A DNA stretch of 64,000 nt from Patescibacteria group bacterium (lineage in GTDB: Bacteria; Patescibacteriota; Patescibacteriia; PEXW01). The stretch spans positions 602,522-666,521 of the forward strand of contig JBAYJA010000001.1 of assembly GCA_041665345.1 (NCBI GenBank), in the 5' to 3' direction. A program made the position numbers and the translations under genes. Each line of letters begins with the position of its first letter. The first letter of the stretch is position 1. The notes under the pieces were generated by a model, which saw only the letters and a program-made list of their open reading frames with translations, searched no databases and was not told the DNA's origin. Below, one piece after another: positions 16,268 to 46,209 of the stretch.

Positions 16268-17077
16268 ATGCGAAAAATGACTCTTGTGTTTAGTGCTTTT
16301 GTGTGTGCCCTCCTGCTGGGTACTCCAGCGTTGGCACAGGTCAACGGTTCAACCGATCTTACCAAACCCACTATTTCCAGTGTGACGGTTAGCAACATTA
16401 CGTCCACCCGGGCTGAAGTCACCTGGTCCACCAACGAACCAGCCACCAGCTATGTGGATTTTGGAACCAGTGACCTCTACGGCACCACTGCTGGTGAAGG
16501 GAGCTACCTGACCGCACACGTCGTTACGGTTTCCGGCTTAACCGCAAACACCATTTACCACTTCCGCATTCGTTCCAAAGATGCAGCTGGGAATGAGGCA
16601 ACCAGCACGGACACGACCTTCACCAGCGCAGCAACTGCCGTGACAAATACAAACACTGCGGTGAATAGTAATGGGAATGTGAATACAAAGGTGAACACGA
16701 ATACCGCAGTCAACGCGAACGCGAATAAGAATACCAACACCGCGGTCAACAAGAATACGAACACGAAGGTGAATACGAACGCCAACAAGAACGTGAATAC
16801 GAATGCAAATGCAAACAAGAATGTGAACAAAGCAGCGGATGAAACGAATGTGAATTCGGCAAACCTGAATACCAACACGGTGAATGAGAACGCAAATGAC
16901 GCACTGGATCTGAATGCTAGCGCAGACACCACCAACACGACGAACACGGCGGATACCGGAACAACGTCCGATGGACGGACTGGCGTGCTCTTAATTGTCT
17001 TGGGATTACTCTTGCTGGTTGGCGTCCTGGTCACCCTGTGGGTGAAGTCCCGCCGGGAGCGCGGACCCCGCCCTTAG
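16268..17077 (+). CDS. Cell-surface protein: signal peptide, Fn3/PAP-N-like domain, Asn/Thr-rich repeat stalk, C-terminal TM anchor
   Basis: Signal peptide CALLLGTPALAQV, then a beta-rich domain (TRAEVTWSTNEPATSYVDFG) typical of Fn3-like purple-acid-phosphatase N domains. It is followed by a VNTNT/ANKN low-complexity repeat and a C-terminal hydrophobic helix plus RRERGPRP. Confidence 0.55.
   Translation: MRKMTLVFSAFVCALLLGTPALAQVNGSTDLTKPTISSVTVSNITSTRAEVTWSTNEPATSYVDFGTSDLYGTTAGEGSYLTAHVVTVSGLTANTIYHFRIRSKDAAGNEATSTDTTFTSAATAVTNTNTAVNSNGNVNTKVNTNTAVNANANKNTNTAVNKNTNTKVNTNANKNVNTNANANKNVNKAADETNVNSANLNTNTVNENANDALDLNASADTTNTTNTADTGTTSDGRTGVLLIVLGLLLLVGVLVTLWVKSRRERGPRP
16650..16975 (+). repeat. 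Imperfect short tandem repeats encoding an (N-T-N-T-A-V-N / A-N-K-N-V-N) low-complexity stalk
   Basis: Recurrent aacacgaat/aacaagaat units in the DNA, with a very biased Asn/Thr/Val/Ala composition in the protein. Confidence 0.5.
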
Positions 17078-18144
17078 TCCAAGGGCTGGTCAATAGTAGC
17101 TCCACCCAGGCAGACCTGCTGGTCGTAGAACGCGCAGATTTGCCCAGGCGTGATTGCACGCTGTTTACGGACAAAGTTGACCGTCAGCAGCCCATCATCA
17201 CCCACAATCACTGTACAGGCCTCCACAGGCTGCCTGTAGCGTATTCGTGCTGCACAATTAAAGGTTGCCCCAGGTGGCGTCCCTGCAACCCAGCTGGCTC
17301 CTGAAGCGGTTAGGCCTTTGTGGTACAGCACTTCATCTCGGTTCCCTTTGGCGACGATTAAGGTGTTGGTAGCTGAGTCTTTTGCTGCAACGTAGTACGG
17401 CACGCCACCCCCAACCCCTAGCCCATGCCGTTGGCCAATGGTGTACAGGGCAATGCCCTCGTGCTGGCCAACCACTGTACCATCAGCGGTTTGCACTGGT
17501 CCGGGATGAACACCAAAACGCTCTTTGAGCAAAGCATGCACATCCACCTTGCCCACAAAGCAAATCCCCTGGCTGTCAGGTTTCGCAGCAGTTGGTAACT
17601 TTGCTGCCTTTGCCATTGCACGTACCTCGGGCTTCCGTAAATGGCCAATGGGAAACTGCACATGCCGCAGCATGTCCTGGCTGAGCATGCACAGAAAGTA
17701 CGTCTGGTCTTTTTCGGTATCAACAGCCGTAAGCAGCTGAACATGTTTTCCGTCACATTCAACCCTAGCATAGTGTCCGGTAGCGATTTGATCGTAGCCT
17801 TCTGCAATCGCTTTTTGTAAAAACACCCCAAACTTAATTTCTCGGTTGCACCACACGTCTGGGTTTGGCGTCCTGCCCGCTGCGTAGGTGGCGTAGAAGT
17901 ACTCCAAAACCGCAGCACTGTACTCTTTGGTAAAATTCCAGGTTTCCCAAGGAATACCAAGGTGCTTGCTCACCTTCTCTACATCTGCCTGATCAATTTC
18001 CCACGGGCAGTCTGCCAGAGCATCTGGCGGTGGTTCATAGTTCTTCATGAATACGCCGCGCACATCAAAACCCTGCTGCTGCAGAAGCAGCGCGGCTACG
18101 GACGAATCAACCCCACCGGAGAGAGCAACAATAATCTTAGACAT
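17074..18144 (-). CDS. mnmA: tRNA-specific 2-thiouridylase MnmA
   Basis: PP-loop SGGVDSS at the N-terminus plus full-length similarity to MnmA. Confidence 0.9.
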   Translation of the reverse strand: MSKIIVALSGGVDSSVAALLLQQQGFDVRGVFMKNYEPPPDALADCPWEIDQADVEKVSKHLGIPWETWNFTKEYSAAVLEYFYATYAAGRTPNPDVWCNREIKFGVFLQKAIAEGYDQIATGHYARVECDGKHVQLLTAVDTEKDQTYFLCMLSQDMLRHVQFPIGHLRKPEVRAMAKAAKLPTAAKPDSQGICFVGKVDVHALLKERFGVHPGPVQTADGTVVGQHEGIALYTIGQRHGLGVGGGVPYYVAAKDSATNTLIVAKGNRDEVLYHKGLTASGASWVAGTPPGATFNCAARIRYRQPVEACTVIVGDDGLLTVNFVRKQRAITPGQICAFYDQQVCLGGATIDQPLD

Positions 18145-18165
18145 GGACAGCTTCTTTGCGTTGGA

Positions 18166-20127
18166 TTACGCGGCTGCTTTAAATTTTTCCCCACTCACGT
18201 CACCAGTCTTTTTCTTGCGGAGGCGGAACGCAAACCGAGAATCTGGACTAAACTGGTCGTCATCCGCAACCCACTCCCCGTCCAATGACAGTCCGTCCTC
18301 GCTTCGTCCGAGAGAAAAAATGTCCGGATAGCTCCTCCTCCCAATAATTTGCTTCATGCCAGTATATAATGACTCGTTCATTGGCTGGTTGGCGTATTTC
18401 AGTCGGTACTGTGGCCCCACATTCGCAGCACACGGTTCCAAACCCAACTCCTGGGCACGTTTGAGGATTTCCTTGATCGTGGTGTATCTCTGGAAACCCA
18501 AGCTTTGCACGGTAGGGCAAATTAGGTGAGCTGCTTCAGATTTTTCCATCACTGAAAAATCTGAACCCCATAGCATAGCTTTTGCGTGATCACTTATTAT
18601 GACGCCTTGTTCCTCAAGCTGGCGGAGAAGTTCTTCTTTTGTTGTGCCGCCAATCTCTATAGTATCTTGTCTGATACGTCCTTCGGGGAAGGATGTGTAG
18701 ATGTGTGCCATGCCTTCGGGCAGCATCTGGAAGATACCAGGAACGAGTTTGCCCACGTAGGCCTTTGTATCTTCGGTAATATCCCCGGCGTCTCGGGCGA
18801 TTTGGTCTGGGCTACACTCGAACACCACAGGCATATCTGCTTCAGGGTTGCGAGTTTTAAGGAGTTCAGCAATCCGCGGGTCGCGATCATAGCCGAAACC
18901 CTCAATTTCGCTATCCAGTTCGTAGAGGAAACAGAGTTGTTCCTTCGTGAGGGCTTCTCCTGCCTTCGTGGCGTGCTCAATGGCCGTGAGTATCTTCATG
19001 TCCGCAGACTTCTTCTTGTACCCTTCTGCGCCGGGGAGGCTAGCCATTTTCTGCTCGGCGATGTCTGCCATGTTGCCTTCCAGGTTCTGCTGGTTATCTG
19101 CCACCCCACGGACTTCACCAATGTGGTCACCATCCATGCGGATGGCAATGCGGGGAATAGTGGGTTTGCCTTGGCTGTCGAGAGTGTAGTACACGTGGAA
19201 GTCGCCACCTTCGAGCTGCTTCTGGGCTGTGGCAAAGCCTTTGGTGCACCAAGCTGTGCCTTTGTTCTGCAGGGAGGCCCAGAGCGCGGTGGGGTCAGTG
19301 CCCTTTTGGTACGTCACCCACTTGCCTTGGGTTTCCTCACGCATCTCTGGGGTAATTTCCCCGGCCTGGCGGATACCCTCGGCGTACTGCTTGGCAAAGG
19401 AGAGTTTCGCAAAGGCGGCGGCTTTCTCCTTAGTGAGGAGCTCACCTGCTGGGAGGTTGTTATTCGCGGCGGCGCGCTGGGCATCCTGGAGGCGCACCAG
19501 CATGCCTGGGTCTTTCGCGGCCTCAATCATCTGCTGTACGTGCGCCAAGGCTCCGTGGTCCACATCGGGGAACAGGCGGGTGGTACCGGGGGAACGCTTC
19601 GTGAACTCGCCTTTGTCCTTGTCAAAGTCCCCCATCTCCAGCACGTTGCGAAAGGCGTAGTACCGGAACCAAGTGGGGTAGGGTTCGTTGGCGTCAGAGA
19701 GGTACAGCAGCCAGTTGTCCAGGGACTTTTCCAGGTCGACGACGGCAATGTCGCCACGCTGGTCCAACGCTTCTTCGTTATACCGTACATCCATTCCCAG
19801 GTTGCGGGCTGCACGCTCTTCTACCCGCGCGGCACCTTCGGCTAGCTTGTCTTTGTTGGTACGGACGTACTTCTCCATGACCATCTCCCGCAGCAAGGAG
19901 AGAGCACGGGGTCGGGATTTCCCAGCCACCATTTTCTTACCTTGGGTCTTCTCCGAGTCCATGGCCAGCCGTTCCAGACGGCCAAGGTAGTTCTGGATTT
20001 TTGCTGCTGGATCCTGCGGGACTTTTTCACCCGTCCGTCCCTCCGTATGCACAGCAGCACGTTCCACCTCATCACTGGTGTGGAGGTTATACTTTTCTTT
20101 TAGAAATTCAGGATTTTCGCCACGCAT
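18166..20127 (-). CDS. Hypothetical soluble protein, 653 aa, no recognised family
   Basis: Long ORF with balanced composition and AGGAG RBS 7 nt upstream, spaced 9 nt from the upstream DUF2079 gene. No motifs I can assign. Confidence 0.6.
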   Translation of the reverse strand: MRGENPEFLKEKYNLHTSDEVERAAVHTEGRTGEKVPQDPAAKIQNYLGRLERLAMDSEKTQGKKMVAGKSRPRALSLLREMVMEKYVRTNKDKLAEGAARVEERAARNLGMDVRYNEEALDQRGDIAVVDLEKSLDNWLLYLSDANEPYPTWFRYYAFRNVLEMGDFDKDKGEFTKRSPGTTRLFPDVDHGALAHVQQMIEAAKDPGMLVRLQDAQRAAANNNLPAGELLTKEKAAAFAKLSFAKQYAEGIRQAGEITPEMREETQGKWVTYQKGTDPTALWASLQNKGTAWCTKGFATAQKQLEGGDFHVYYTLDSQGKPTIPRIAIRMDGDHIGEVRGVADNQQNLEGNMADIAEQKMASLPGAEGYKKKSADMKILTAIEHATKAGEALTKEQLCFLYELDSEIEGFGYDRDPRIAELLKTRNPEADMPVVFECSPDQIARDAGDITEDTKAYVGKLVPGIFQMLPEGMAHIYTSFPEGRIRQDTIEIGGTTKEELLRQLEEQGVIISDHAKAMLWGSDFSVMEKSEAAHLICPTVQSLGFQRYTTIKEILKRAQELGLEPCAANVGPQYRLKYANQPMNESLYTGMKQIIGRRSYPDIFSLGRSEDGLSLDGEWVADDDQFSPDSRFAFRLRKKKTGDVSGEKFKAAA

Positions 20128-20136
20128 ATACTACTC

Positions 20137-22560
20137 CTACTCTATCCCCTTTTTCTTGAAAAACCAAAAGTTGTTCTCGTGGTTCACTAGCTCAAAACGT
20201 TCATCCTTTTGCAAGTCTTCAAACTGTACGTGGTTTCGCTGCCACTCTAAAGAACCTTCTTTTGCCAGGAGGACGAGAATGTAATCTGCCAACTCAATCC
20301 CCTGGGGGAATTGGTACAGGTGTTCCCGCTCAGCCAGTTGCGCGCCAACGGTGTTGGTTGCAGAGACTGGTGCATTTTCTGGGATCTGGTCAATTGCCGC
20401 GTGGATAACTGGCGCCATGGGTGCGCGCCAGTATGCCCGCATATCTGCATGCTGTGCATACGGTAGTGGGCTGAGCCGGTATGACTCCACTGCCCCTATA
20501 ACGAGCAAGAAGAGGGCCAAGAAACCAAAAAGAGATAGTCTCATCCAAGACTTTACCCGCCGATCCCACCAGGCTCCAAAACGACGCTGGAGTGCTGCGA
20601 TGCCAAAGATGGTACTAATGAAGACAAAACCGCCAATCGCCGCCTGATAGTGATAGATGAGGGTTCGTGGCTCGATCCGTTCATTGAAAAGGTTCACCAC
20701 AAAATCTGGCCAGGCAACAGCCAGCCAGAGCGGACTGGCGATGGAAAGAAAGCCAACTGGCCCCATGACCCCAGCGTACATATGCCGTGCCTGCTTCCCC
20801 GCCACCATGGAGACAATCAACCGCGGATTGGTCGTTGCAGTTTTCAGAATTTCCGAAGGTGACGAACCTAGGGTATCGTACAAAACTGTGTACTTATTAG
20901 GCACACCATGCCGTGCAGCAGGCATGATGAGGAAGTACACCAAGCAGAAGTACGCAACAGCCAAGCCAATAACCGTAAGTGCTCGTTTCCAGGCAATACG
21001 ATCTCGGAAGTACATGAGCACCCCCACCCCGGCCACCATCAGTGCCAGCTCCTCTTTGCATAATGCGAAGAGGATGGCGAAAATAGCAAACCGCCACCAA
21101 CGCTTTTCCACCATAGCCAGGATCATGCCAATGGCAAAGGTTGGCGCTAAGGTTAAACCATGAAAGTCAAAGAGCACGGCACGTTGCAGGGTTGGGTAGA
21201 ACAGGTAGCTGAGCGCTAGGACCGCGGCTAGCCACTCGTGCCCCAGGACTTTTCTGGCCAACCGGAACACGAACCACCCACCCAAGGCCACAATGCAAGC
21301 CTGCAAGACGAGTAGCAACATGGGGCTGGCAAAAATCCAGTACAGCGGGGCGATGAGAATGAGAATGAAGTCCGCGTGGTGAATTGCTCGGTAGACTGTT
21401 TCCGTGCTGTAGGGGTTGGTAAATTGGAATATCCTACCCTGGCTGGTGTTCCATACGGTCTGGTCCATATTCCCCAGGTCAAACCGGGAAGTTATGACTT
21501 TGGACTGCATGACCAGGGTGATGATGGAAAAGTAAACTGCAAAACCGATAATGAAAACAACAACGATCCCGGCTGGGGTGCGGATTTTTTGCCAGAGCCA
21601 TACTAATCCTTGCCTGATGTACGACCAGGCAAAGATGCCAACGCATACAAACTCTGCAATCGTTGCGCCCAAACGGACAAGTGTGGCGGCAATAACGCTG
21701 CTAGGTCCCAAGCTGACGCTCAAGAGGCCAGCGAGCACGGCCTCTCGCACGCCAATGCCGCTGGGGGTGAGGAAGCTCAGGTACCCCAATGCCCAGCTCA
21801 GAGGCAGTGCGGCCAGCGCCAACACAATGGATACAGCCGCTTCAGTTTGAAAAGCTCGGAGCAGCAAATACCCACCAACGCTGTACGACGTCCATGCGAG
21901 GAGCTCCCACACGAAAATAGTACAGAAAACTTGCCCGCCAATTGGCGCTGCAACGAATTGCTTCCCCATGCGCTGCATACCCCAAGCCAAGAACCGGTGG
22001 ACAAGCTTGGTTGCAAAGACTGCAACCACCGCGCCAGCCGCACCAAGACCGCCAGCATACCGAACCCATGATGGAAGATCTGAAGTGAAAAGCGCAAACG
22101 CACCACCTAACGTTGCCGCTGCAGCCAGCATGCCCGCGACTTCAATAATCGTTGCGTACAACCCGGTGCCAGACGCCATCCCAAACTTTGCACTCTGCGC
22201 CATGCGGCCAAGCACGCTCCATACATTCCCCGGAATGTACCGCACTGCATCAGAGAGCATGATAACCTGTCCGGCTTCCCGGTACGACAGACGCGTACCC
22301 AAGGCTTTACTCAGGTGCTGCCAGGCAAAAATGCGGAAAAAGGAAAAGCCACTAAAACCAAGTAAGCCCAGCACCAGCCAGCGGACGTCCGGTGCGTGCC
22401 ACGCCTGCGCAACCGTGCCCCAGCTCTGTTGCAGAGCGCGTGCGAAGAAAAGAACGACAAGCAGGACAACCACGGTTGCCAGCACCCGGCGTATGGGCTT
22501 TTGCAGATTAGACCAGCTCACCATGCCCATTCCATTCATCTCGCACAGGGACAGAATCAC
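20137..22560 (-). CDS. Fusion membrane protein: N-terminal UPF0104 flippase-like (lysyl-PG-synthase TM-like) domain plus C-terminal DUF2079-like polytopic domain
   Basis: N-terminal ~330 aa are multi-TM with an LTPSGIGVREAVLAGLL motif typical of UPF0104. The remainder is polytopic with DLGNMDQTVWNTSQG typical of DUF2079. Overlaps the GT2 gene ORF end. Confidence 0.6.
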   Translation of the reverse strand: MILSLCEMNGMGMVSWSNLQKPIRRVLATVVVLLVVLFFARALQQSWGTVAQAWHAPDVRWLVLGLLGFSGFSFFRIFAWQHLSKALGTRLSYREAGQVIMLSDAVRYIPGNVWSVLGRMAQSAKFGMASGTGLYATIIEVAGMLAAAATLGGAFALFTSDLPSWVRYAGGLGAAGAVVAVFATKLVHRFLAWGMQRMGKQFVAAPIGGQVFCTIFVWELLAWTSYSVGGYLLLRAFQTEAAVSIVLALAALPLSWALGYLSFLTPSGIGVREAVLAGLLSVSLGPSSVIAATLVRLGATIAEFVCVGIFAWSYIRQGLVWLWQKIRTPAGIVVVFIIGFAVYFSIITLVMQSKVITSRFDLGNMDQTVWNTSQGRIFQFTNPYSTETVYRAIHHADFILILIAPLYWIFASPMLLLVLQACIVALGGWFVFRLARKVLGHEWLAAVLALSYLFYPTLQRAVLFDFHGLTLAPTFAIGMILAMVEKRWWRFAIFAILFALCKEELALMVAGVGVLMYFRDRIAWKRALTVIGLAVAYFCLVYFLIMPAARHGVPNKYTVLYDTLGSSPSEILKTATTNPRLIVSMVAGKQARHMYAGVMGPVGFLSIASPLWLAVAWPDFVVNLFNERIEPRTLIYHYQAAIGGFVFISTIFGIAALQRRFGAWWDRRVKSWMRLSLFGFLALFLLVIGAVESYRLSPLPYAQHADMRAYWRAPMAPVIHAAIDQIPENAPVSATNTVGAQLAEREHLYQFPQGIELADYILVLLAKEGSLEWQRNHVQFEDLQKDERFELVNHENNFWFFKKKGIE

Positions 22561-23458
22561 GATCTACGGACCGGACGAGCAATTCTGCAAGGAGACCGGT
22601 AAAAATGAGCTGCAGACCAACGAGCGCAAAGAATATGCCAAAGGTGAGGAGTGGCCGGGTGCCAATTGCTGCGCCGGTGAAGAGTTTGACGCAGACGAGG
22701 TAGAGTAGAATGACACTACCCAGGAATGTCATGCTGGCGCCAATGCCACCAAAGAGGTGCAGCGGCCGCCGATTGTACTTGGTGAGAAAAAGTACAGTGA
22801 GCAAATCCAAGAAACCTCGAAGGTACCGTGCGCCGCGGTACTTCGTTTCGCCGTACTTTCGGACCCGCGTGTGCGTTGGCACTTCCACCACGGAAAAACC
22901 TTGGGTGTGCGCCAAGATAGGAATGTACCGATGCAGCTCGCCGTAGAGTACCAAACTCTGCGCAGCAGTTCGGGTGTAGGCCTTAATGGCAGAATTGAAG
23001 TCATGTAACTGCAAGCCAGACACTTTTCGGGTAATCGCATTAAAAAACTTGGACGGAAGTCGCTTCTCCAGACTGTCCGGCCGGTCAAACTTCCAACCAT
23101 TCACCACATCCGCCCCGTCTGCAATTTTCTCTAAGAGCTTGGGGATCTCTGCTGGGTCATTTTGCAAATCAGCATCCAGGGTCACAATCACCTCACCCCG
23201 AGCCTTTTGGAAACCAACGTAGAGTGCTGCAGCTTTCCCCATGTTCCGCCGGAGGATAATGGGATGTAATCGAGTGTCCGTCAGCGCTTGCGCACGGAGG
23301 AACGCTTGGCTGCGATCAGTCGAGCCGTCGTCCACCACAACAATTTCGTACGGGATGGCCAAAGTTTTGGCAAAGGCATGGAGTTCAGCAAAAAGCTCAG
23401 GCAAGCTCTGGCGCTCGTTGAATGCTGGGGTAACGAAAGAAATCGACCGGGGTGTCAT
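22508..23458 (-). CDS. GT2 family polyprenol-phosphate glycosyltransferase (GtrB/ArnC/DPM1-like) with C-terminal TM helices
   Basis: Motifs FVTPAFNER, VVVDDGSTDRS and TLDADLQNDP plus two C-terminal TM helices. Start moved to the ATG of MTPRSISF, which has an AGGGG RBS. Confidence 0.8.
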   Translation of the reverse strand: MTPRSISFVTPAFNERQSLPELFAELHAFAKTLAIPYEIVVVDDGSTDRSQAFLRAQALTDTRLHPIILRRNMGKAAALYVGFQKARGEVIVTLDADLQNDPAEIPKLLEKIADGADVVNGWKFDRPDSLEKRLPSKFFNAITRKVSGLQLHDFNSAIKAYTRTAAQSLVLYGELHRYIPILAHTQGFSVVEVPTHTRVRKYGETKYRGARYLRGFLDLLTVLFLTKYNRRPLHLFGGIGASMTFLGSVILLYLVCVKLFTGAAIGTRPLLTFGIFFALVGLQLIFTGLLAELLVRSVDRDSVPVRDEWNGHGELV

Positions 23459-23648: not shown

Positions 23649-23676
23649 AGTATACAGTAATGAAAGTTTTTGTCAA
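23649..23676 (-). promoter_or_regulatory. Candidate sigma70 promoter TTGACA-N16-TATACT (minus strand)
   Basis: Reverse complement reads TTGACAaaaactttcattactgTATACT. It lies upstream of the terminator-like structure and the GT2 operon. Confidence 0.4.
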
Positions 23677-23742: not shown

Positions 23743-25623
23743 CTACTTGAACCGCACGACCTGACCAAAAGCAATGGGTTGTTCAGGGTCAGACTCTTTG
23801 GCGAGCTTGGGTTTTTGGGCAGGTGGAATAGGCTTTGGCTCTTCTGCTGGTGTTTGCGTAGGTTGAGATGTCGCAGCTGGTGCAATTGGCCGCTGGGAGG
23901 CCTGGGGTGCTGGAACCTGTGGCTGCAGTGGCCGGGGTTGCTGGTTGAAGCGTGGTGAAGGATTGTACGACGGTCGTCCACCAGGGCCTTGCCGGCGGGG
24001 GCCTTGGTGCTGGCCAAAACTGGAACCACCTTCCCGCCCAGGGCCGGTGGGACGAGGACCTTGTGGACGTGGGTACGGCGGTCTTTCAGAACGGGGTGCA
24101 GGTGACGCTGTACGATTTTCGCTGGGTGGTGCTGTTGGCTGGCTTGGCTGCGACTGTGGCAGCAAATCGCTGAGCTTCATTGCTGGTTGCTCAGGCGTGC
24201 TGGCGACAACTGGTTCCACCTCCACTTGGTCACGCTGGAAGAGATTATTTGGCGGCCGGCGCTTCTTGCCCTCTGCCCGGTATGGCGACTCCTCTTGCTG
24301 CACGGCAATGTTCTCCTCTTCAGCCGAAGCTCGGTACACCTCATCAACTCCGCTCCAGCGGAGAATTTTCTCTTCAACTTCTTTCTGTGGGGCGCTGTAC
24401 CGTTCCCGTGAAGCAGCAATCACCTTTGCTCGGTTGTCAGTTCGACCACCCACGGGCGGCAACGTGGTAGCGCTAAACGGTTCAGAGGCAACCCCGTCAA
24501 TCATCAACTTGAGGTAGATTTCGTACTTAGGGAGGTTCACTAAATCCACCTGGGTAAAGGTCGGGAAAAACTCTTTTTCCAAAAATTCACCATCTGCCCC
24601 ACCCACCCGGAATGCCATAATCGTACCCACGTTCCCAAAGACCGCCGGTGCAACCTTCTCATCCAACTGCTCAATGTACTGGTGGGCAATGGTGAGATTC
24701 AAACGGTACTTCCGAGCTTCGGAGAGAATGTTCGCAAAACTCTCCGTGGCAAAGTTTTGGAATTCGTCCACGTACAGGAAGAAGTCATGACGCTCTTCTT
24801 CCGGAATGTCCACCCGGCTCATGGCTGCCAGCTGCATGCGAGTAATCATCATGGCGCCCAGCAAGGCAGAGTTATCTTCACCAATGCGACCTTTGGAAAG
24901 GTTGAAGAGCAAAATTTTTCGGCTGTCCATTATTTCCCGCAAATCAATGGAACTCTTGGACTGGCCAACAATGTTGCGAATAATGGCACTGGAGAGAAAT
25001 TGCCCAACCTTGTTTTGAATTGGGGCCACTGCTTCATTCCGAAATTTGTCATTGTAATTATTAAATTCATCAACCCAAAAACCCTTGACGATTGGATCAG
25101 TGACCTTGGTGAGTACGCGGGTGCGGTAATTCCGGTCAACCAGCATCCGCGCCACCCCCAACATGGTTGAGCCAGGATACTCCAAGAGTGCGAGAATGGT
25201 GTTGTTCAAGATGTACTCCATACGCGCAGACCACACCCCTTCCCAAATCTTGGTAAACACACCCATTAAACCGGAAGCAACTAAGTGCCGCTGCGTTGCG
25301 TCCACTGCTTCCAGTACGTTGAACGCAATGGGGTACTCCATGTCAGACGGATTGAAGTACACCACATCATTCACTCGGTGGTTGGGAATGAAGTCTAAGA
25401 CTTTTTCCACCAGGTCGCCGTGCGGGTCAACCAGGGCTAAGCCATGACCAGCGTTGATATCATTAATAATCAAATTTTCCAAAACCGTGGTTTTGCCCAT
25501 ACCCGTCTTCCCAATGAGGTACATGTGGCGCCGGCGGTCATCCAGCTTTATGCCAAAACGCCGATGCCCACCCTGGTAATTGGTGGCAGCAAAAACGTTA
25601 ATTTCTGGACGCGCTTCAGGCAT
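23743..25623 (-). CDS. VirD4/TraG/TraD (TrwB)-like coupling-protein-type P-loop ATPase lacking N-terminal TM domain, with long Pro/Gln-rich C-terminal tail
   Basis: Walker A LIGKTGMGKTT at aa 35-45, then VDPHGD and Walker B FFLYVDEFQNF, matching the T4CP/FtsK-HerA superfamily. No hydrophobic N-terminus. The last ~150 aa are P/Q/S-rich and disordered. Confidence 0.65.
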   Translation of the reverse strand: MPEARPEINVFAATNYQGGHRRFGIKLDDRRRHMYLIGKTGMGKTTVLENLIINDINAGHGLALVDPHGDLVEKVLDFIPNHRVNDVVYFNPSDMEYPIAFNVLEAVDATQRHLVASGLMGVFTKIWEGVWSARMEYILNNTILALLEYPGSTMLGVARMLVDRNYRTRVLTKVTDPIVKGFWVDEFNNYNDKFRNEAVAPIQNKVGQFLSSAIIRNIVGQSKSSIDLREIMDSRKILLFNLSKGRIGEDNSALLGAMMITRMQLAAMSRVDIPEEERHDFFLYVDEFQNFATESFANILSEARKYRLNLTIAHQYIEQLDEKVAPAVFGNVGTIMAFRVGGADGEFLEKEFFPTFTQVDLVNLPKYEIYLKLMIDGVASEPFSATTLPPVGGRTDNRAKVIAASRERYSAPQKEVEEKILRWSGVDEVYRASAEEENIAVQQEESPYRAEGKKRRPPNNLFQRDQVEVEPVVASTPEQPAMKLSDLLPQSQPSQPTAPPSENRTASPAPRSERPPYPRPQGPRPTGPGREGGSSFGQHQGPRRQGPGGRPSYNPSPRFNQQPRPLQPQVPAPQASQRPIAPAATSQPTQTPAEEPKPIPPAQKPKLAKESDPEQPIAFGQVVRFK

Positions 25624-25625
25624 AG

Positions 25626-27176
25626 TTACTCAATGAAAGGAAGATTTGTTGGAATTTGCGGTTGCGGTGGTGCAGGCTCCGTTGGCTGCGGTTGCGCTGG
25701 GGCTACAGCTGGGGGCGGGGTCAGTGGCTCTGCTGTGGGAAGTGCTGCCGGCGCTGAGGCTTTTGCGGCAACTGAAGCTGAGCGCATTTTTTGGATAATT
25801 TGTGGGGTTTCCGTTGGCAGGTAAACTGGCGCCCCGCCCCGCTTCGTCTCCGATTTCTGCACTTGCCCAGCTTTCACGTCAATGGTTGGGAAGTGGAAAA
25901 TGGATGCCATTTCTTCAACATTCATGTAGATTGCTTCGCGGCCACGCCACACCGAACGAATGCGATAGTTGTACAAATTACGCCGCTTCCGGTCTCGCAT
26001 CCGGTACTCCTTCAAAAGCACAATATCACTGGTCTTTGTGAGTTTGCTAAAGGTAAAAATGTTACTATCCGCAATTGCGTACTGCTTCAACGCACCAACG
26101 ACGCCGTTCACGCCCTTGGCTTTGTTAAAAGGTTTCCGACCATCTGGCCCGGGCGTGACTTTCCCCCAGTAAATGAAACGACCCTTGACCTTGAAAGCGA
26201 TTTTCGAAAGCTTCATTTCAATCTGGGTTACCGTATCCCGCTCACCCGGAGAGAGGTGCAGCATGAGGGAAGGCGGATCATCCTTCTTCTGCTTCTGCGT
26301 TTCCCATGACCCAGGAGGGATGAGCGAGGCGGTGAGCGCTTCCCGAACACCCTGACCCACAAGCCGTGGCACCTCCCAAGGGCTACCTTTTTCCTTCCCC
26401 TTCTTGCCAATAAGCTTGTGCACAATTTCCTGTGCTTTGTCGCGCCAGGCGTAGTCCTCTTGCTGCAAGCACCACTGAATCCAAATCTGCTCGTCAGGAC
26501 TAATACGGCTCATAATTTCCAGTAACGCACCCATAGGATCAATGAGCTTCTGCGACATGCTGTGTTCGAAGAAGGGGTAGGTCCGGATTGGGTAGGCACT
26601 GTGGCGTAAAAAGTTTATTTGTGCGGACCAGCAGTCCCACTCTTTCTGATGCTCCAGCTCTCTAGGCTTCGGCATGAAATCCACATAGTCCTCCACCTCG
26701 GTAATTTCCGCATCTGGGTACTGAGCGTAAATTGCAGACTCAATGATGTCTCGTTGAATAATAAGGCAACGGACAAAAAATTGGACGTACCCACCCAAAC
26801 TCGCAATTTCTACCGACATGTTTGGCGGCACGAAGCCGTACGAAAAAAACTCGGTGAAAGGCAAGCCCCACTTCTCTGGAAAAATTGGCTGTTTGGAAAT
26901 GCCATGGAAGTGCGCGAACATCTGCTCCGCTGCTTTTGGAGTTTGCTCGCTATTTTTGGGCACATCCACCGCCAAGAGCACGTACTTCCCCACGTAGTTC
27001 TTCATGACGTACCGGGTGGTAATCCACTCAAACCAGGCGTACTTCATGCCAACGAGAAAGGTCCAAACCACAGCGATCCAGCCACCGTTGTTGAAAATGA
27101 AAATCGCCATACTGACCGGGTTTCCGGCAGAGGCGCGAAAATCATTCAGGAGAAGCGTGGTGTCGAGGAGGGCCAT
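25626..27176 (-). CDS. Hypothetical membrane-anchored protein (single N-terminal TM, 516 aa, Pro/Ala-rich tail)
   Basis: TM segment VSMAIFIFNNGGWIAVVWTFLVGM, a large domain of unknown family, and a C-terminal PAxP-rich tail. Lies 2 nt upstream of the ATPase gene. Confidence 0.5.
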   Translation of the reverse strand: MALLDTTLLLNDFRASAGNPVSMAIFIFNNGGWIAVVWTFLVGMKYAWFEWITTRYVMKNYVGKYVLLAVDVPKNSEQTPKAAEQMFAHFHGISKQPIFPEKWGLPFTEFFSYGFVPPNMSVEIASLGGYVQFFVRCLIIQRDIIESAIYAQYPDAEITEVEDYVDFMPKPRELEHQKEWDCWSAQINFLRHSAYPIRTYPFFEHSMSQKLIDPMGALLEIMSRISPDEQIWIQWCLQQEDYAWRDKAQEIVHKLIGKKGKEKGSPWEVPRLVGQGVREALTASLIPPGSWETQKQKKDDPPSLMLHLSPGERDTVTQIEMKLSKIAFKVKGRFIYWGKVTPGPDGRKPFNKAKGVNGVVGALKQYAIADSNIFTFSKLTKTSDIVLLKEYRMRDRKRRNLYNYRIRSVWRGREAIYMNVEEMASIFHFPTIDVKAGQVQKSETKRGGAPVYLPTETPQIIQKMRSASVAAKASAPAALPTAEPLTPPPAVAPAQPQPTEPAPPQPQIPTNLPFIE

Positions 27177-27182
27177 CGTGAA

Positions 27183-28325
27183 TTAGGCCGAAGGTACGTT
27201 TGCGAGGGTGTACTCGCCGGTTGGGAGTTTGGTAAATTTGGAACGATTGGTGAGTGCCAGGTGGATGGTATTTCGTTTCACGACGCGCTGCTTCAGCACC
27301 TCCTGCACCAGTTCATCACGTCGCATTGGTCGGCCAGCTTTCTGTAAGGTAGTCACAAGTATGTCAGCAACTACGCCTGGCTGAAAGCCCCATTCCTGCA
27401 GAGCATAAATTCCACGGCCAATGAGCACGTACTCTTTATTGAGAATGAGCTCATTATGCACGGTTGGTGCGTACGCAGTCCGATGATCAAATTTTGCTTC
27501 ATTAATGAGCCGAGTGATCTCATTGAAGTGTAGGGGTTTCTTTGCCTTCTGTAGCACTAAGTGTATCTTATCATTCATTCGCTTGGGGACGATACTCCCC
27601 CACGCCACCAAGCCATACTCATCGTACGGATTACGAGCTAAAACCGTGCTGACATCAATGTACGCACTAATGGCGTTGTCGGTTAACTGAAAGCGGTGTT
27701 CCTGTGCGAAAGCGGTTTTTCCAATTTCTTGGAGCAATTCTTGCAATTTTATTGGTGTCTGACGTGCTTCGAGAATCCGCACCGCCTCGGTAATGGTATC
27801 AGCTACTAAGTGCACCGGGGCAGTCACAGACTGCCACGCTGGCCAGTAGCTTGGATTCTCCTGGAACCGCTTGCAACGATCAGCAAGCAAAAATTCCATC
27901 AAGAAGAGTGTGCAGGCGCGGTAGCCTGCATGCGTATCATTGACTCCCAAAAGTTGCTGCAGAAACATTTCTTCCCGCATGACTCCGCCGTGCTGGTCAA
28001 GCACTGTGGTAATAGCGTCTGCTACCGGTTGCAATAATTCATGCACGCCGTGCAATTTTCGGAGTTTCCCAATTGCGCCAGTGGCAATTTGACGAACCCG
28101 TTCTCGCGTCACCTTGTAGTAGGCACCAATCATCTCCAGGGTTTGCGCATCTTCTCCATTGAGGGCATGCCGACGACGCAAAATATCCTCTTCCCGAGTG
28201 GGTAAAGATTTTAGCAGCGTGGTTACCACCTCAACTGGGTTGAAGTGCTCAATCTCCTGGGTCTGCTTCTGGGAGAGTACTCGGTCGAGAATGGAACTGG
28301 TATTGTCGCTTTGCACGTTGTCCAT
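27183..28325 (-). CDS. Sigma-70 region 4-like HTH protein with large C-terminal domain of unknown function
   Basis: Residues ~45-100 LPTREEDILRRRHALNGEDAQTLEMIGAYYKVTRERVRQIATGAIGKLRK match the sigma-70 r4.2 HTH. Start placed at ATG (MDNVQ), because the -10 box lies inside the longer GTG-started ORF. Confidence 0.55.
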   Translation of the reverse strand: MDNVQSDNTSSILDRVLSQKQTQEIEHFNPVEVVTTLLKSLPTREEDILRRRHALNGEDAQTLEMIGAYYKVTRERVRQIATGAIGKLRKLHGVHELLQPVADAITTVLDQHGGVMREEMFLQQLLGVNDTHAGYRACTLFLMEFLLADRCKRFQENPSYWPAWQSVTAPVHLVADTITEAVRILEARQTPIKLQELLQEIGKTAFAQEHRFQLTDNAISAYIDVSTVLARNPYDEYGLVAWGSIVPKRMNDKIHLVLQKAKKPLHFNEITRLINEAKFDHRTAYAPTVHNELILNKEYVLIGRGIYALQEWGFQPGVVADILVTTLQKAGRPMRRDELVQEVLKQRVVKRNTIHLALTNRSKFTKLPTGEYTLANVPSA

Positions 28326-28351
28326 ACAATGGATTTCGCTAATCGTTGCAT

Positions 28352-28380
28352 AGTATATCACTTTGTTTACAACATGTCAA
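28352..28380 (-). promoter_or_regulatory. Sigma70 promoter TTGACA-N17-TATACT for the three-gene operon
   Basis: Reverse complement reads TTGACAtgttgtaaacaaagtgaTATACT, ~27 nt upstream of the ATG at 28325. Confidence 0.5.
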
Positions 28381-41516: not shown

Positions 41517-42610
41517 ACGCGCACGCTTTTAGAGACATTCAGAGCAATGCCAATGGCAGCCAGGGTAATAATTAAGGACGTGCCACCATTAGAAATGAAG
41601 GGTAAGGGTACACCGGTCAACGGCAAAATGCCACTCAGCGCCCCAATATTCACAAAGGCCTGCAAAGTGACCCAGGTAATGACCCCCACCATAATCAGCC
41701 GGCCAAACGGGTCGCTCAGCCGCCGTGCCAGCTGCTGCCCGCGCCAGAAGAAACCAACGTAGAGTGCAACGAGACCCACGACCATGAAGAAGCCTAGCTC
41801 TTCGGCCGCAATGGCAAAAATCGAATCGCCCTCAGCTTCCGGCAAGTAGTTAAATTTTTGGATGGACCGGCCGTAGCCCCGGCCAAAGAGCCCACCAGAG
41901 CCAATAGCCAGCAAGGACTGATTAATGTGGTACCCCTCATCTTGCTGGCTGGACGATGGGTTGAGGAAAATGGTCAGCCGTGCGGCGCGGTAGGGTTCAA
42001 AGGTAATGAGCAACATAATGGCCACGACGCCTGCTGCAAACAGCAGCGCAATGTACCGACCCGGCGCACCGGCCGCCACGTAGAGGACAGTCGCAATGCC
42101 CACAATGACAATGCTCGTACCCAAGTCAGGCTGCAGAATGAGCATACCGCCAATGGCGCCAATCAAAATCAGTAAACGCACAAACACCCGCTGGGGTTCA
42201 CGCTCCAAATCGCCTAGCTTGGTAAACCACCGCGCCAGGAAAAGAATAAGCGCCAACTTGAGCAACTCCGAAGGTTGGAAGAACAAACCACCAAAGGCAA
42301 TCCACCGCTTGGCGCCCAAAAGCGAGGTGCCCACTCCAGGGATGAAGAGGGCAACGACGAGCAGGAAACTCACCACCAGAATTGGGACTGCCCACTTCTG
42401 CCAGTGCAGGTACGGTACCCGGGCCAGGAGCAGCATGATGGCAATCCCCAAGCAGAGGGAAATGATTTGCTTGGTCACGTACCCGTTTGGGTCGCCCAAA
42501 TTTTGGAAGGCAGCCACACTGCTGGCTGAAGCCAAAATGATTATGCCAATGACGCAGAGAGCAAGGGTGAGGCTGAGTAAAATGCCGTCGACGCTCTGAG
42601 AGGATTTCAT
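41513..42610 (-). CDS. ftsW: SEDS family peptidoglycan glycosyltransferase FtsW
   Basis: Ten-TM SEDS family pattern, located between murD and murG. Confidence 0.85.
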   Translation of the reverse strand: MKSSQSVDGILLSLTLALCVIGIIILASASSVAAFQNLGDPNGYVTKQIISLCLGIAIMLLLARVPYLHWQKWAVPILVVSFLLVVALFIPGVGTSLLGAKRWIAFGGLFFQPSELLKLALILFLARWFTKLGDLEREPQRVFVRLLILIGAIGGMLILQPDLGTSIVIVGIATVLYVAAGAPGRYIALLFAAGVVAIMLLITFEPYRAARLTIFLNPSSSQQDEGYHINQSLLAIGSGGLFGRGYGRSIQKFNYLPEAEGDSIFAIAAEELGFFMVVGLVALYVGFFWRGQQLARRLSDPFGRLIMVGVITWVTLQAFVNIGALSGILPLTGVPLPFISNGGTSLIITLAAIGIALNVSKSVRV

Positions 42611-44718
42611 ACGAGCGTCCGAACAGCTTTGACGAATTGCGCACCCCGGTCAAATTCATTCCGGAACAGTCCAAAGCTGGCTGCCCCAGGAGAAAGCAGA
42701 ACTATATCCCCAGACTGAGCGTGCTTCTGCGCTTCTCGGACTGCACGAGGCATCGAATTGACCAGCTGGTGACGGACCCGCAAGGCTGGCAACATTTTCT
42801 GCGTGGCTGAACCGGGTAAGAGCACCACAAACTTTGCCGACGCATTCAGTGCTCGGATGAGTGGCTGTAAAGGGAAATGCTTGTCTGTTCCTCCGGCAAT
42901 GACAACACATTTTTTAGGGAAAGCACTCCGAATACTCATGGCCGCAGCTTCCGGGTTGGTTGCGGTCGTGTCGTTGATCCAGGTGACGCCGCGGTGCTGG
43001 CGGACGGTTTGAAAACGTTCAGGTACCCCAGGAAAAGTCTGCAAACTTTTCGCAATGGTTGCGGGGGCAATGCCAAGCGCACGAGCAGCTAAGGCGGCAA
43101 TCATTGCATTTTGCCAAAATGCTGGGTGCGCCACCGCTAATTTTCGCACTGCCACTAGCCTTTCAACCCGAGCACCAAGTTTTACCATAATCCAGCCACG
43201 GTCGAGCCAGGCATGGGCCCGAGCCTGTGGCTTGGCGGCAAACCACAGCACACGTGCCCGAGTTTGTTTGGCAAACTGCTGCGCCGCTGGATTATCCAAA
43301 GGCAAAAGCAGAAAATCCTTTTTGGTTTGTCCACGAGTAATGAGCTGCTTCGCTGCAAGGTACGGACGCATGCTGCCATACCGGTTCAGGTGGTCTGGAA
43401 AAAGGCTGGTCACAATGCCAATGCGCGGTGCTAAGGGCATGGCCTGCGTATCTTCCAACTGAAAAGAAGACACCTCCAGCACCACTCGCGTGCGCCCATC
43501 AAATGCCTGCGGAAAAGCCAGGGGCGATACCCCAACATTTCCCGCCAGCACAGTCTTGGGCAAATGACGCCGAAGGATGTGCGCCAGCATGGACGCGGTC
43601 GTGGTTTTTCCTTTCGTACCCGTTACCACATACACAGGGTTCTGGCTATGACTGCGGAAAAGCCCAAGGTCACCAATAATCAGCGCACCTTTTTTCCTGG
43701 CCGCACGCAGGGCTGGATGGTCTGGCCGGACGCCTGGATTTTTGATAATCACCTCAGCATTTGCAAGCAATGCACTGGGATTTTTTTTCCCAAAAGCGTA
43801 CTGCACTGGCAGGCCTCGGAGGTTGAGCAAAACTTGAGTAAAATCTTTGCGCGGTCGAGCATCAACAACGCTCACCTGTGCATGATTTGCAACCGCGTAG
43901 CGTACGCTCGCTTCTCCCCCACCCTGGACACCCAAACCAAAGACCGCAACTTTTCGACCTCGGAGATCTGTGGGTACTGACGTGCGGGAGATAATGGACA
44001 AGGTGTTGGTCTTCGTCTCCCCGTCCCGCCGAAAAGAAGGGAGAGCACTGGTTTCATGCGTGCATGGTGCCTTTGTGTCAATATTCGCTTTTCGCACGCC
44101 CATGGCAACCAACTGCCGAACCACCCCAGCCCGTAGGTCAACCAGCCCACCGCGCGCTGTGGGTTGAACACTCCCGCGCAGGGCTTTCCGGATAATTTGC
44201 AAACGTTTCTTATTGGTCACCTCGTAGCATCTTCCACAAATGGACGGCCCCAACCATACCCGCACTTTTTTTGGCTTAACCCCTTGGCGTTTGAGAAGCA
44301 TGATCACCTCAGCCGCAATATTTTTCACTGCACCTTTCCAACCTACATGGAGGAGGCCAACCCAGCCCGTTTCTGGTTCAGCCAGGAAAACTGGGATGCA
44401 ATCAGCAGTAAAAACCCCAAGGGCAATATTCGGCCGCTGTGTCAGGAGCCCGTCCGTTGCCGGCAAGTAGGTTTTAGGCGCCAGCACCCCGGCGCCAATA
44501 TCATGATCAGTAACAATGCGCACCCGTTGTCCATGCACTTGTCGGCCGAGCACTAGCCGGTCAACAACAATCCCAACGGCTTTCCCAAACGCTCGCCGCT
44601 GCGCCAGCACCTTTTGCCGCGGGTTTGCCCGGAAAGTCAACGGCAAAAAGCCTCTGGCGGCGGTGCCAAACTGAATTCCTGGGAGCTGCGCTAGTTTTGC
44701 TGAACGAAAAACCTCCAT
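42607..44718 (-). CDS. murD: Fusion protein: N-terminal peptidoglycan editing factor PgeF (YfiH/DUF152, laccase-like) plus C-terminal UDP-N-acetylmuramoylalanine--D-glutamate ligase MurD
   Basis: Residues 1-245 carry FTADCIPVFL, LLHVGWKG, CGRCYEV and SFRRDGETKTN, typical of YfiH/PgeF. From ~aa 250, RKVAVFGLGVQGG and VTGTKGKTTT indicate MurD. There is one continuous frame with no stop. Junction near nt 43970-43980. Confidence 0.75.
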   Translation of the reverse strand: MEVFRSAKLAQLPGIQFGTAARGFLPLTFRANPRQKVLAQRRAFGKAVGIVVDRLVLGRQVHGQRVRIVTDHDIGAGVLAPKTYLPATDGLLTQRPNIALGVFTADCIPVFLAEPETGWVGLLHVGWKGAVKNIAAEVIMLLKRQGVKPKKVRVWLGPSICGRCYEVTNKKRLQIIRKALRGSVQPTARGGLVDLRAGVVRQLVAMGVRKANIDTKAPCTHETSALPSFRRDGETKTNTLSIISRTSVPTDLRGRKVAVFGLGVQGGGEASVRYAVANHAQVSVVDARPRKDFTQVLLNLRGLPVQYAFGKKNPSALLANAEVIIKNPGVRPDHPALRAARKKGALIIGDLGLFRSHSQNPVYVVTGTKGKTTTASMLAHILRRHLPKTVLAGNVGVSPLAFPQAFDGRTRVVLEVSSFQLEDTQAMPLAPRIGIVTSLFPDHLNRYGSMRPYLAAKQLITRGQTKKDFLLLPLDNPAAQQFAKQTRARVLWFAAKPQARAHAWLDRGWIMVKLGARVERLVAVRKLAVAHPAFWQNAMIAALAARALGIAPATIAKSLQTFPGVPERFQTVRQHRGVTWINDTTATNPEAAAMSIRSAFPKKCVVIAGGTDKHFPLQPLIRALNASAKFVVLLPGSATQKMLPALRVRHQLVNSMPRAVREAQKHAQSGDIVLLSPGAASFGLFRNEFDRGAQFVKAVRTLV

Positions 44719-44775: not shown

Positions 44776-45821
44776 CTAACCCCGCTCCACCAGGAAGAGC
44801 ACAATGCCCAGCACGCAGAACACCCCCGCGATGACCCAGAAACGCATGACGATTTTTGCTTCGGGCCAGCCTTTGGCTTCCAGGTGGTGATGGAATGGAG
44901 CCGACAGAAAAACTTTTTTCTTGCGAAAGCGTTTCGATAGAAGCTGAATAATGACGCTGACAGACTCGAGAACGAAAAGGATGCCAATGACGGGGAGCAA
45001 AAAAACCTCATTGGTGAGCATGGCTAAAATGCCAAGGGTCACACCGAGAGACATGGCACCGGTATCGCCCATGAAGAAGCGCGCCGGCGGTATGTTGAAC
45101 CATAAGAAAGCAAGCAATGCACCCACCACCACGGCCGTGAACGTAGCTAACTCAAACCGACCCTGGGCAAATGCAATGGCGCCAAAGGCCGTAAACGCGG
45201 CGAGTAACGTTCCCCCTGAGAGCCCATCTAAACCATCAATTTCATTCACCGAAAAAGCTGTGGAAACAATGACAAAAATGAAGAGCGGGAAGTACCACCA
45301 CCCAATGGCAAAATTACCAAAAAATGGAACGTGAATTGTATCAAAATCGAGTTTAAAAAAGAACCACCAAGCACCTATGAGTGCAATCGCGGTGTAAATG
45401 AGCACTTTATGCCGGACCTGCAGCCCCCCGCCCTTCGGCCCCCACCCGCGGACATTGAAGTAGTCATCCACCAAGCCAACCAGAGCCGAAGCCACAAGTG
45501 TCGCTAATGGCAACCAGGTTTGCTGACGGGTGAGAAAATTAAGATCATGCCAAAACCCGCTGGGCACAACTTGCCGCAGCACAAAGAAGAACACTGCAAA
45601 GAGTGCAACCGTAAACCAAATAAGCACGCCACCCATGGTTGGCGTTCCAGCTTTTTTCTTATGGAACTGCGCAAATACTGGCGCATCAGTCGTGGCCCGA
45701 ATTTTTTTCCCCAAGCGATACTTGTACAGGATACTTGCCCAGAGCGGCGTTAATCCCATGGTAAATGCAAACGCCAACGTTGCAAGCAGAAGAATGCGAA
45801 TAATCGGAAAGAGGTCGGTCA
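44776..45821 (-). CDS. mraY: Phospho-N-acetylmuramoyl-pentapeptide transferase MraY
   Basis: Ten-TM MraY with DD/DG motifs (VDDYFNV, NEIDGLDGL). Start placed at MTDLFPIIRI. Confidence 0.9.
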
Positions 45822-46187: not shown

Positions 46188-46209
46188 TCCTCGTCCTCTT
46201 CGTTTGTGC

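Follow-up and report, generated by a model that had tools for sequence, protein, structure and literature searches.

A Probable Glycosylation Gene Pair and a Stand-Alone Member of a Diversity-Generating Retroelement Target Family Adjoin in a Patescibacteria Genome

Three-component systems for lipid-linked glycosylation are exemplified by GtrA/GtrB/GtrV, ArnC/ArnE-F/ArnT, and CsbB/GtcA/YfhO. The prototype variable proteins of diversity-generating retroelements (DGRs) are Mtd from the Bordetella phage BPP-1 and TvpA from Treponema denticola, which have variable regions with a C-type-lectin fold. In this report, we describe a cluster of four minus-strand genes that can be compared with both kinds of system. 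The cluster is situated within a 64-kb stretch of DNA (the window) from the 1.08-Mb genome of a Patescibacteria group bacterium, carried on a metagenome contig of 1,075,605 bp (ENA ERZ27249449), and it encodes, in order, a GT2 glycosyltransferase, a polytopic membrane protein in which an LPG_synthase_TM (UPF0104) domain is fused to a DUF2079 domain, a soluble protein of 653 amino acids, and the tRNA 2-thiouridylase MnmA. An original prediction, made from the DNA sequence, took the 653-aa protein for an orphan that is tightly coupled to the two preceding genes and that may be the acceptor, a modifying enzyme, or a regulator of a lipid-linked-sugar module. The analysis presented here covered the window and 22 kb around a paralogue of the 653-aa protein in the same genome (locus L063). 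It leads us, with good confidence, to a different reading, in which two unrelated things adjoin one another: a conserved, probable glycosylation pair and a stand-alone member of a DGR target family.

The family of the 653-aa protein is like Mtd and TvpA in that its variable region is C-terminal, its template codons are AAY-rich, and the domain that contains this region has its best structural matches, as judged from predicted models, among C-type-lectin-like proteins. The 653-aa protein is unlike Mtd and TvpA in that it shares no sequence similarity with them, does not match the Pfam FGE-sulfatase or DUF1566 families, is neither a phage tail fiber nor a lipoprotein, and carries an unrelated N-terminal module of 440 residues. 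The 653-aa protein is also like the DGR targets from the Patescibacteria, or candidate phyla radiation (CPR), which Roux et al. (2021; PMC8144416) assign to clade 2 and Wu et al. (2018; PMC5758913) to a "CPR set". It is 50–73% identical to targets of the family whose 3′ end, the variable repeat (VR), is paired with a downstream template repeat (TR); in it, as in the targets of PMC8144416, neither a membrane segment nor a signal peptide nor a Pfam domain is found. The window copy is unlike the CPR-type targets in that no TR, Avd, or reverse transcriptase is found in the 64 kb, and in that the gene lies inside a cluster of housekeeping and glycosylation genes. According to Roux et al., such elements belong to a clade that is restricted to the Patescibacteria, and their targets usually have no recognizable membrane or conserved domain; it is left open there whether the DGR targets of the Patescibacteria are non-membrane proteins. 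Wu et al. assign 90% of the DGRs from the CPR to a "B3" subtype.

A Large Family of DGR Targets

The gene for the 653-aa protein (NCBI locus tag WCV85_03290) is located at 18166..20127 on the minus strand. The first 441 residues (18805..20127, minus strand) form a conserved N-terminal module, and residues ~594–638 are encoded by a segment (18214..18348, minus strand) that is homologous to the VRs of relatives, as defined by alignment with 20 TR/VR pairs. No match to the 653-aa protein was found in Pfam, NCBIfam, PHROGs, PADLOC, or the PDB sequences, either with the single sequence or with profiles. Neither a membrane segment nor a signal peptide was detected (the maximum 19-residue hydropathy is 0.78), and the protein is, as had been proposed, soluble. 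With respect to the curated libraries the term "orphan" holds; with respect to relatives it does not. A sequence search returned at least 715 homologues at 59–75% identity, attributed to Giovannoni-, Terry-, Lipton-, Yanofsky-, Magasanik-, Sung-, Moran-, Komeili-, Uhr-, Falkow-, and Woesebacteria, among others. With HMMER, 3,960 representatives of 50%-identity clusters were found at E ≤ 1e-3 (999 of them at E ≤ 1e-30), and all 3,960 were seen in Patescibacteria. The family is, on this sequence evidence, very large, specific to the Patescibacteria, and a frequent target of DGRs.

Residues 1–440 are extremely conserved across the family, with the motifs NEPYPxWFRYYxFRN, GTAWCTKG, GDFYVYYT, PRIAIRM, and GEVRGVxDxxQNLEGN, and the final ~60 residues vary around a fixed scaffold. 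Some members carry other N- or C-terminal extensions, in which Pfam identified no extra domains in ten proteins of 735–1131 aa. In a few members, tandem or overlapping internal repeats of 77–96% identity and no adenine bias are found in the C-terminal region instead of a simple variable repeat (L058 11360–11924, L052 1361–1648, and L062 7639–8462). This suggests that the C-terminal domain of these proteins is a different one, built from repeats. A mobile-element origin for the N-terminal module was considered and rejected, since tblastn against plasmids and phages gave no match at E ≤ 1. A PcfJ-like domain is listed among the DGR targets of the CPR by Wu et al. (PMC5758913). A possible PcfJ-like identity for the family, which was suggested by this mention, was dropped: none of 34 family members matched Pfam PcfJ at E ≤ 10, and in the literature the term led to nothing but plasmid names from C. 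elegans, which are unrelated.

Sixty family loci were fetched from species-representative genomes, and all of the flanking open reading frames (ORFs) were clustered. The only recurrent flanking genes encode a YADD-motif reverse transcriptase of ~330 aa (17 loci) and a four-helix protein of ~110 aa (8 loci), which, from its sequence pattern, we take to be of the 23S-rRNA-IVS/Avd type. In most of these loci the two genes lie 0.4–1 kb downstream of the family gene, and a direct repeat of 120–150 nt, which corresponds to the 3′ end of the family gene, sits between that gene and the reverse transcriptase. Among the 46 loci with at least 1.5 kb of downstream sequence, 19 have a repeat of the 3′ end 300–450 nt downstream, and L003 adds one more (~40%). 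The order of the cassette is the target, the TR, the Avd-like gene (called on the opposite strand), and the reverse transcriptase.

The mismatches between the two copies of the repeat are concentrated at one nucleotide. The 20 TR/VR pairs have 428 mismatches in all, and at 382 of these the downstream copy, in which adenine makes up 28% of the sequence, has an adenine. In individual loci all of the mismatches are at template adenines (19/19 in L014, 30/30 in L048, and 23/23 in L041), and the same was found for L003 (10/10), the closest relative of the window gene at 70% identity, which was counted separately from the 20 pairs. Because adenine-specific mismatches are the defining signature of a DGR, the family gene is identified as the target, its 3′ ~135 nt as the VR, and the downstream copy as the TR. 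The reverse transcriptase would copy the adjacent TR with adenine-specific errors and overwrite the VR, by which the binding surface would be re-randomized. The template need not be adjacent. A Komeilibacteria genome (JBLYPW010000001.1) has two family copies, L027 (351514–373415) and L045 (60726–82636), and one template repeat. The VR of L027 is ~290 kb from the TR of L045, and 23 of the 25 mismatches between them are at template adenines, which shows that members of this family can be targeted remotely.

The structure of the 653-aa protein was addressed with predicted models. The full-length model, made with 34 close homologues, was mediocre overall (predicted local distance difference test score, pLDDT, of 72) and good for residues 430–640. 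The N-terminal 441 residues, modeled with 93 diverse sequences, reached a pLDDT of 93.6 and a predicted template modeling score (pTM) of 0.86. A Foldseek search with a first, low-confidence full-length model gave only matches with E > 0.3. C-type-lectin-like structural matches appear only when the C-terminal part is present in the model, and so it is the C-terminal part to which these matches apply, in line with what a variable domain of a DGR target would show. The VR-homologous segment is accordingly placed by the models in a predicted C-terminal C-type-lectin-like domain. The N-terminal module is predicted to contain a partial GNAT-like α/β core inside a larger fold without a close match among solved structures. 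Unlike the GNAT acyltransferases, this module does not match the acetyltransferases of Pfam (no match for the family at E ≤ 10) and shows no evident canonical Q/RxxGxG/A motif; a GNAT domain is one third of its size. The module is possibly enzymatic, with acyl transfer as a conjecture only.

A bolder proposal, to which we attach little credence, is that a GNAT-like acyl-transfer core is steered to changing substrates by the hypervariable lectin-like domain. The family would then be a cytoplasmic "retargetable modifier" that is programmed by a retroelement. Such a modifier might act, for example, against phage or host-cell molecules, and in stand-alone copies, that of the window included, a specificity would have become fixed and been domesticated within a housekeeping operon. 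Quite apart from this proposal, the annotation of the 653-aa protein as "hypothetical" or "orphan" can be replaced by that of a DGR-target-family member. One very large DGR-target family is now defined, with a conserved module of ~440 residues and a C-terminal variable domain; it includes copies with a nearby TR, copies with a remote TR, and stand-alone copies, and it provides a concrete protein for structural and biochemical study.

The Window Copy, Its Neighbors, and Its Paralogue

The gene order and the spacing given by the original prediction were confirmed. The GT2 gene is at 22508..23458 (minus strand; 316 aa from the ATG at 23458, within an ORF that reaches 23476 and encodes 322 aa). 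The gene for the fusion protein (20137..22524, minus strand; 795 aa as called by NCBI, or 807 aa with a GTG at 22560) overlaps the GT2 gene by 17 nt. The fusion stop codon and the ATG of the 653-aa gene are separated by 9 nt, with an AGGAG ribosome-binding site inside the gap, and the 653-aa gene is separated by 21 nt from mnmA (17074..18144, minus strand; 356 aa; Pfam tRNA_Me_trans at 1.1e-75, plus the M and C domains). The latter is the final gene of the co-oriented cluster and is convergent with an fn3-like gene. A sigma-70-like promoter candidate, TTGACA and TATACT with a 16-nt spacer (23649..23676, minus strand), which is a consensus match only (11/12), sits within the 285-nt gap upstream of the GT2 gene. 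No terminator-like sites were found in the short junctions of the cluster. By virtue of its position only, the 653-aa gene probably shares a transcript with the GT2-fusion pair and mnmA. Where the fusion gene meets the 653-aa gene (20128–20145, minus strand), the sequence is GAGTAGGAGTAG, in which 6 nt, the fusion stop codon among them, are duplicated in tandem; in the sister genome L185 there is one GAGTAG, then TCGGC, and then the ATG of mnmA. The duplication may be a matter of chance or an insertion scar.

This physical spacing is what stands of the tight coupling that had been proposed, since the adjacency itself is unique to the window genome. When the window GT2 and fusion proteins were used as tblastn queries, neither GT2 nor DUF2079 was found within 10 kb in any of the 60 other family loci. 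Conversely, the GT2-fusion-653-aa adjacency is absent from all six of the other fusion-gene loci. The overlapping GT2-fusion pair itself is present in four of these six genomes (L185, L186, and L187 at 84–52% identity, and L188 at 32%), and no GT2 gene was found beside the fusion gene in L189 or L190. In the three sister loci (L185, L186, and L187, at 84%, 56%, and 52% identity, respectively) the order is sigma70, 516-aa protein, VirD4-like, GT2, fusion, mnmA, fn3-like, PPIase, fmt, def, priA, with no 653-aa gene and with 1–5 nt between the fusion gene and mnmA. The more distant L033 retains SecF, the homologue of the 516-aa protein, the VirD4-like gene, a family gene, and mnmA; the intervening genes encode an α/β hydrolase, a D-Ala-D-Ala carboxypeptidase, and a radical-SAM protein, and neither GT2 nor DUF2079 is found among them. 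The GT2-fusion-653-aa adjacency is specific to the window genome among the loci compared, and the 653-aa gene was presumably placed between the GT2-fusion pair and mnmA by genome rearrangement. The value of dS between the two paralogues in this genome (0.84) falls inside the range for orthologues of the window and L185 (0.76–2.1), and for this reason a gain of the gene here is not distinguishable from a loss in the sister genomes. On the evidence of the 60 family loci and of the sister loci, no conserved partnership links the 653-aa protein to the glycosylation module. Gene adjacency in the compact genomes of Patescibacteria is not to be read as functional coupling.

The paralogue (locus L063, contig positions 181283–203382) is a protein of 699 aa that is 75% identical to the 653-aa protein. 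The homology between the two loci extends from codon 3 of the family gene to ~66 nt inside mnmA. In L063 a dead 5′ fragment of mnmA (~63 nt, L063 12104–12166) begins 3 nt past the stop codon of the paralogue and ends in an ORF that is short and likewise dead. A direct repeat of 27 nt, CGCTGCTCCTGAAGCGTTGGAAAGGGT, borders the inserted segment on both sides (L063 9879–9905 and 12159–12185), and the P-type ATPase gene upstream has this sequence as its 3′ end. The mnmA fragment and the flanking repeat indicate that the family gene moves as a DNA segment, and from its sequence L063 looks like a microhomology-mediated segmental copy of the junction between the family gene and mnmA. The two copies have diverged very unevenly. 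In the first 1,150 nt (window 18971–20119) 86% of nucleotides are identical, compared with 68% in the last ~780 nt (window 18078–18856), and past residue ~428 the paralogue is longer by an insertion of 46 residues. The C-terminal third could have undergone recombination or domain replacement.

The 653-aa protein is 50–73% identical to the products of loci L003–L061, ~20 of which have TR/VR pairs. Neither the window nor the 22-kb region of the paralogue contains a repeat of 18166–18500. When 17 reverse transcriptases and 8 Avd-like proteins of relatives served as tblastn queries, neither gene was found in the window, L001, or L063 (best E of 0.2). What the window copy does carry is a mark at the tip of the gene. 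Adenine amounts to 19.3% of 18214–18348, compared with 26–31% in the rest of the gene and 26.7% in the corresponding segment of the paralogue; in relatives the VRs contain 15–16% adenine and the TRs 28%. Relative to the TR of L003, the closest one available, the window segment is changed at 22 of 38 adenines and at 30 of 96 other positions (odds ratio of 3.0, p = 0.006), in a test for which the template comes from another genome and to which selection on the binding residues could contribute. No enrichment of changes at adenines was observed when the paralogue segment was compared with the same TR. The 3′ end of the 653-aa gene, TTTGCGTTCCGCCTCCGCAA, is identical to the 3′ end of the L003 VR. 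The adenine depletion most likely identifies the segment as a former or remote DGR target.

The two possibilities differ in whether a DGR elsewhere on the chromosome still rewrites 18214–18348 in trans. We regard continued rewriting as unlikely, although it is the most credible of the alternatives considered here. It would be in keeping with the remote match of L027 to L045, with the adenine content of family copies without a nearby TR (15.9%), which are as depleted as those with one (14.7%), and with the adenine bias and shared 3′ end just described for the window copy. The adenine content of the window segment, however, is at the high end of the range for VRs, and 30 of the 96 positions that are not adenine in the closest TR are changed as well. 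A template shared by the window copy and the paralogue was rejected, because 56 of 150 aligned positions differ between the two, 25 of these have no adenine on either side, and there is no enrichment at template-adenine columns. The window contig also has no entry among the best 120 of 8,000 candidate homologues of the reverse transcriptase from the closest relative, which is not conclusive. Our preference is for past adenine mutagenesis over mutagenesis that is ongoing from a remote cassette. It is very improbable that the window copy is a decaying, nonfunctional relic, left as the cargo of a lost DGR cassette or of a duplicative insertion. The gene is present or absent at this site among close relatives, the mnmA fragment and direct repeats at the paralogue reflect segmental copying, scaffold tryptophans are substituted in the window copy, and the ratio of nonsynonymous to synonymous substitutions (dN/dS) against the paralogue is 0.57 in the VR-homologous part. 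These points are outweighed by an intact ORF of 653 codons with a good ribosome-binding site, by dN/dS values of 0.086 for residues 1–430 and 0.10 for residues 431–585 at a dS of ~0.8 or more, and by an N-terminal module that retains every invariant residue of the family. The strong purifying selection on this module indicates that the gene is functional. The window copy is probably a ligand-binding protein whose specificity is currently fixed.

Less credible still is a dedicated partnership of the 653-aa protein with the GT2 and fusion proteins, in which all three would form one functional unit. The shared strand, the 9-nt gap with its AGGAG, the single promoter-like site upstream of GT2, and the junctions without a terminator-like site are what such a unit would present. 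The comparative evidence nonetheless largely refutes it: the adjacency recurs at none of the family or fusion-gene loci, in the closest relative, whose fusion protein is 84% identical, mnmA lies 5 nt past the fusion stop codon, and the recurrent partners elsewhere are the TR, the Avd-like gene, and the reverse transcriptase. Moreover, since the 653-aa protein has neither a signal peptide nor a membrane segment, it would not reach the outward-facing, extracytoplasmic active site that a GT-C-type transferase is expected to have. The proposed role as an acceptor, modifying enzyme, or regulator is not sustained by this comparison. We favor instead the reading in which a glycosylation pair and a stand-alone DGR-target-family protein are unrelated neighbors, and several points weigh against it. 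Transcription from a shared operon could reflect a local functional link that is invisible to comparative genomics. A DGR may be present elsewhere in the 1.08-Mb genome, of which the window and 22 kb were read. The tryptophan that is found at position 626 in at least 90% of 34 aligned relatives is phenylalanine in the window copy, and LWL has become LSL; with scaffold tryptophans substituted, the binding domain may be drifting.

The Probable Glycosylation Pair and Other Genes of the Window

The GT2 protein matches Pfam Glycos_transf_2 (PF00535) at 1.9e-29 with 103 bits (cutoff of 23.3). The best of the NCBIfam models is that of the ArnC type (3.4e-57, 193.9 bits), for which the ArnC equivalog cutoff is 529, and the models for PgfS, AglJ, and PpgS are also matched at scores far under their cutoffs. 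The likeness is at the level of the family only, and equivalence to ArnC, PgfS, AglJ, or PpgS is not supported at the NCBIfam equivalog cutoffs. The translation contains the DXD-type motifs VVDDGS and LDADL (DDG and DAD) and, as had been proposed, C-terminal membrane segments, of which two were found (hydrophobic residues 239–257 and 273–291 of the 316-aa form). A GT2 catalytic domain followed by C-terminal membrane helices is the architecture of the polyprenyl-phosphate sugar synthases, and the protein is predicted to be a synthase of this type (GtrB/ArnC/DPM1-like) at the family level.

For the fusion protein, both of the domains that had been named were recovered above the Pfam cutoffs. LPG_synthase_TM (UPF0104) is matched by residues 28–305 (7.4e-16, 58.9 bits, cutoff of 33.4) and DUF2079 by residues 357–782 (7.6e-72, 243 bits, cutoff of 28.2). 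There are ~16 hydrophobic segments, ~8 of which are in the DUF2079 part. When a profile of the fusion family was searched against the PDB, the sole matches were chains of MprF, and these were weak (E of 0.8). Just past its first membrane helix, the DUF2079 part has the sequence RFDLGNMxQTVWN and then HxD; D349, H383, and D385 (in RFDLGNM and HADF) are invariant in 45 sequences. The conservation of RFDLGNM and HxD is compatible with a GT-C-like catalytic loop. The topology of DUF2079 and its membership in the GT-C clan are assumed here. A full-text literature search for DUF2079 returned no paper that mentions it.

The cytoplasm-facing GT2 protein would probably load a sugar onto polyprenyl phosphate, and the fusion protein would probably flip the lipid-linked sugar and transfer the sugar to an extracytoplasmic acceptor. 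The assignment of the two proteins to a make-flip-transfer module, as put forward in the original prediction, is reasonable; it derives from family membership only, together with the 17-nt overlap and the recurrence of the pair in other genomes. Like the Gtr, Arn, and Csb systems, the window has a GT2 protein of the GtrB/ArnC type that is translationally coupled to a polytopic protein, which plausibly carries out both flipping and transfer. Unlike those systems, there is no separate small flippase gene of the GtrA/GtcA or ArnE/F type between 17074 and 23743, and an MprF-type UPF0104 domain is fused to the putative DUF2079 transferase. With no separate small flippase gene, the role of the flippase would fall to the fused UPF0104 domain. 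The N-terminal 300 residues of the fusion protein match LPG_synthase_TM, as in the lysyl-phosphatidylglycerol synthase/flippase MprF. The fusion protein is unlike MprF in that it has no aminoacyl-phosphatidylglycerol synthase domain and in that the substrate presumed to be flipped is a polyprenyl-phosphate sugar. The two-domain fusion (~795 aa) is common to most of the 120 homologues listed, from many lineages of Patescibacteria. The GT2-fusion pair is an ordinary, recurrent, and uncharacterized putative envelope glycosylation module of the Patescibacteria.

Some LPG_synthase_TM-DUF2079 fusions (~1,100 aa; P0437, P0442, P0467, and P0503) have an extra C-terminal α/β-hydrolase/peptidase_S9 domain. 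Separate α/β-hydrolase genes are found near the module in L188 (1556–2329) and at the equivalent chromosomal position in L033 (9309–9992). This association may hint at an esterase or acyl step that is tied to the module.

Upstream of the cluster on the minus strand are the genes for a VirD4/TrwB-like ATPase (23743–25623), a 516-aa protein without a match to a curated family (25626–27176), and a protein that combines Sigma70_r4 with HARE-HTH (27183–28361). The block formed by the Sigma70_r4/HARE-HTH protein, the 516-aa protein, and the VirD4/TrwB/HerA-like ATPase is conserved in L185, L186, L187, L033, and the window. A single phage profile, phrog_5156 (824 positions), spans both of the latter, with one half matched by the 516-aa protein and the other by the ATPase; the ATPase also matches the PADLOC model mad8. 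In L032 and L033, a gene of the DGR-target family lies directly downstream of this ATPase.

The two further GT-C candidates and the rfbD gene that had been noted in the window were also found. The proteins encoded at 46090–47967 and 60944–62506 belong to PMT_2, which is of the GT-C type, and the protein encoded at 62546–63403 is RmlD. A 703-aa protein encoded at 42607–44718 (minus strand) is a fusion of Cu-oxidase_4 (YfiH/PgeF-type) with a complete MurD-like Mur ligase that has the N, M, and C domains; its gene adjoins those for MraY (44776–46005) and a PMT_2 protein.

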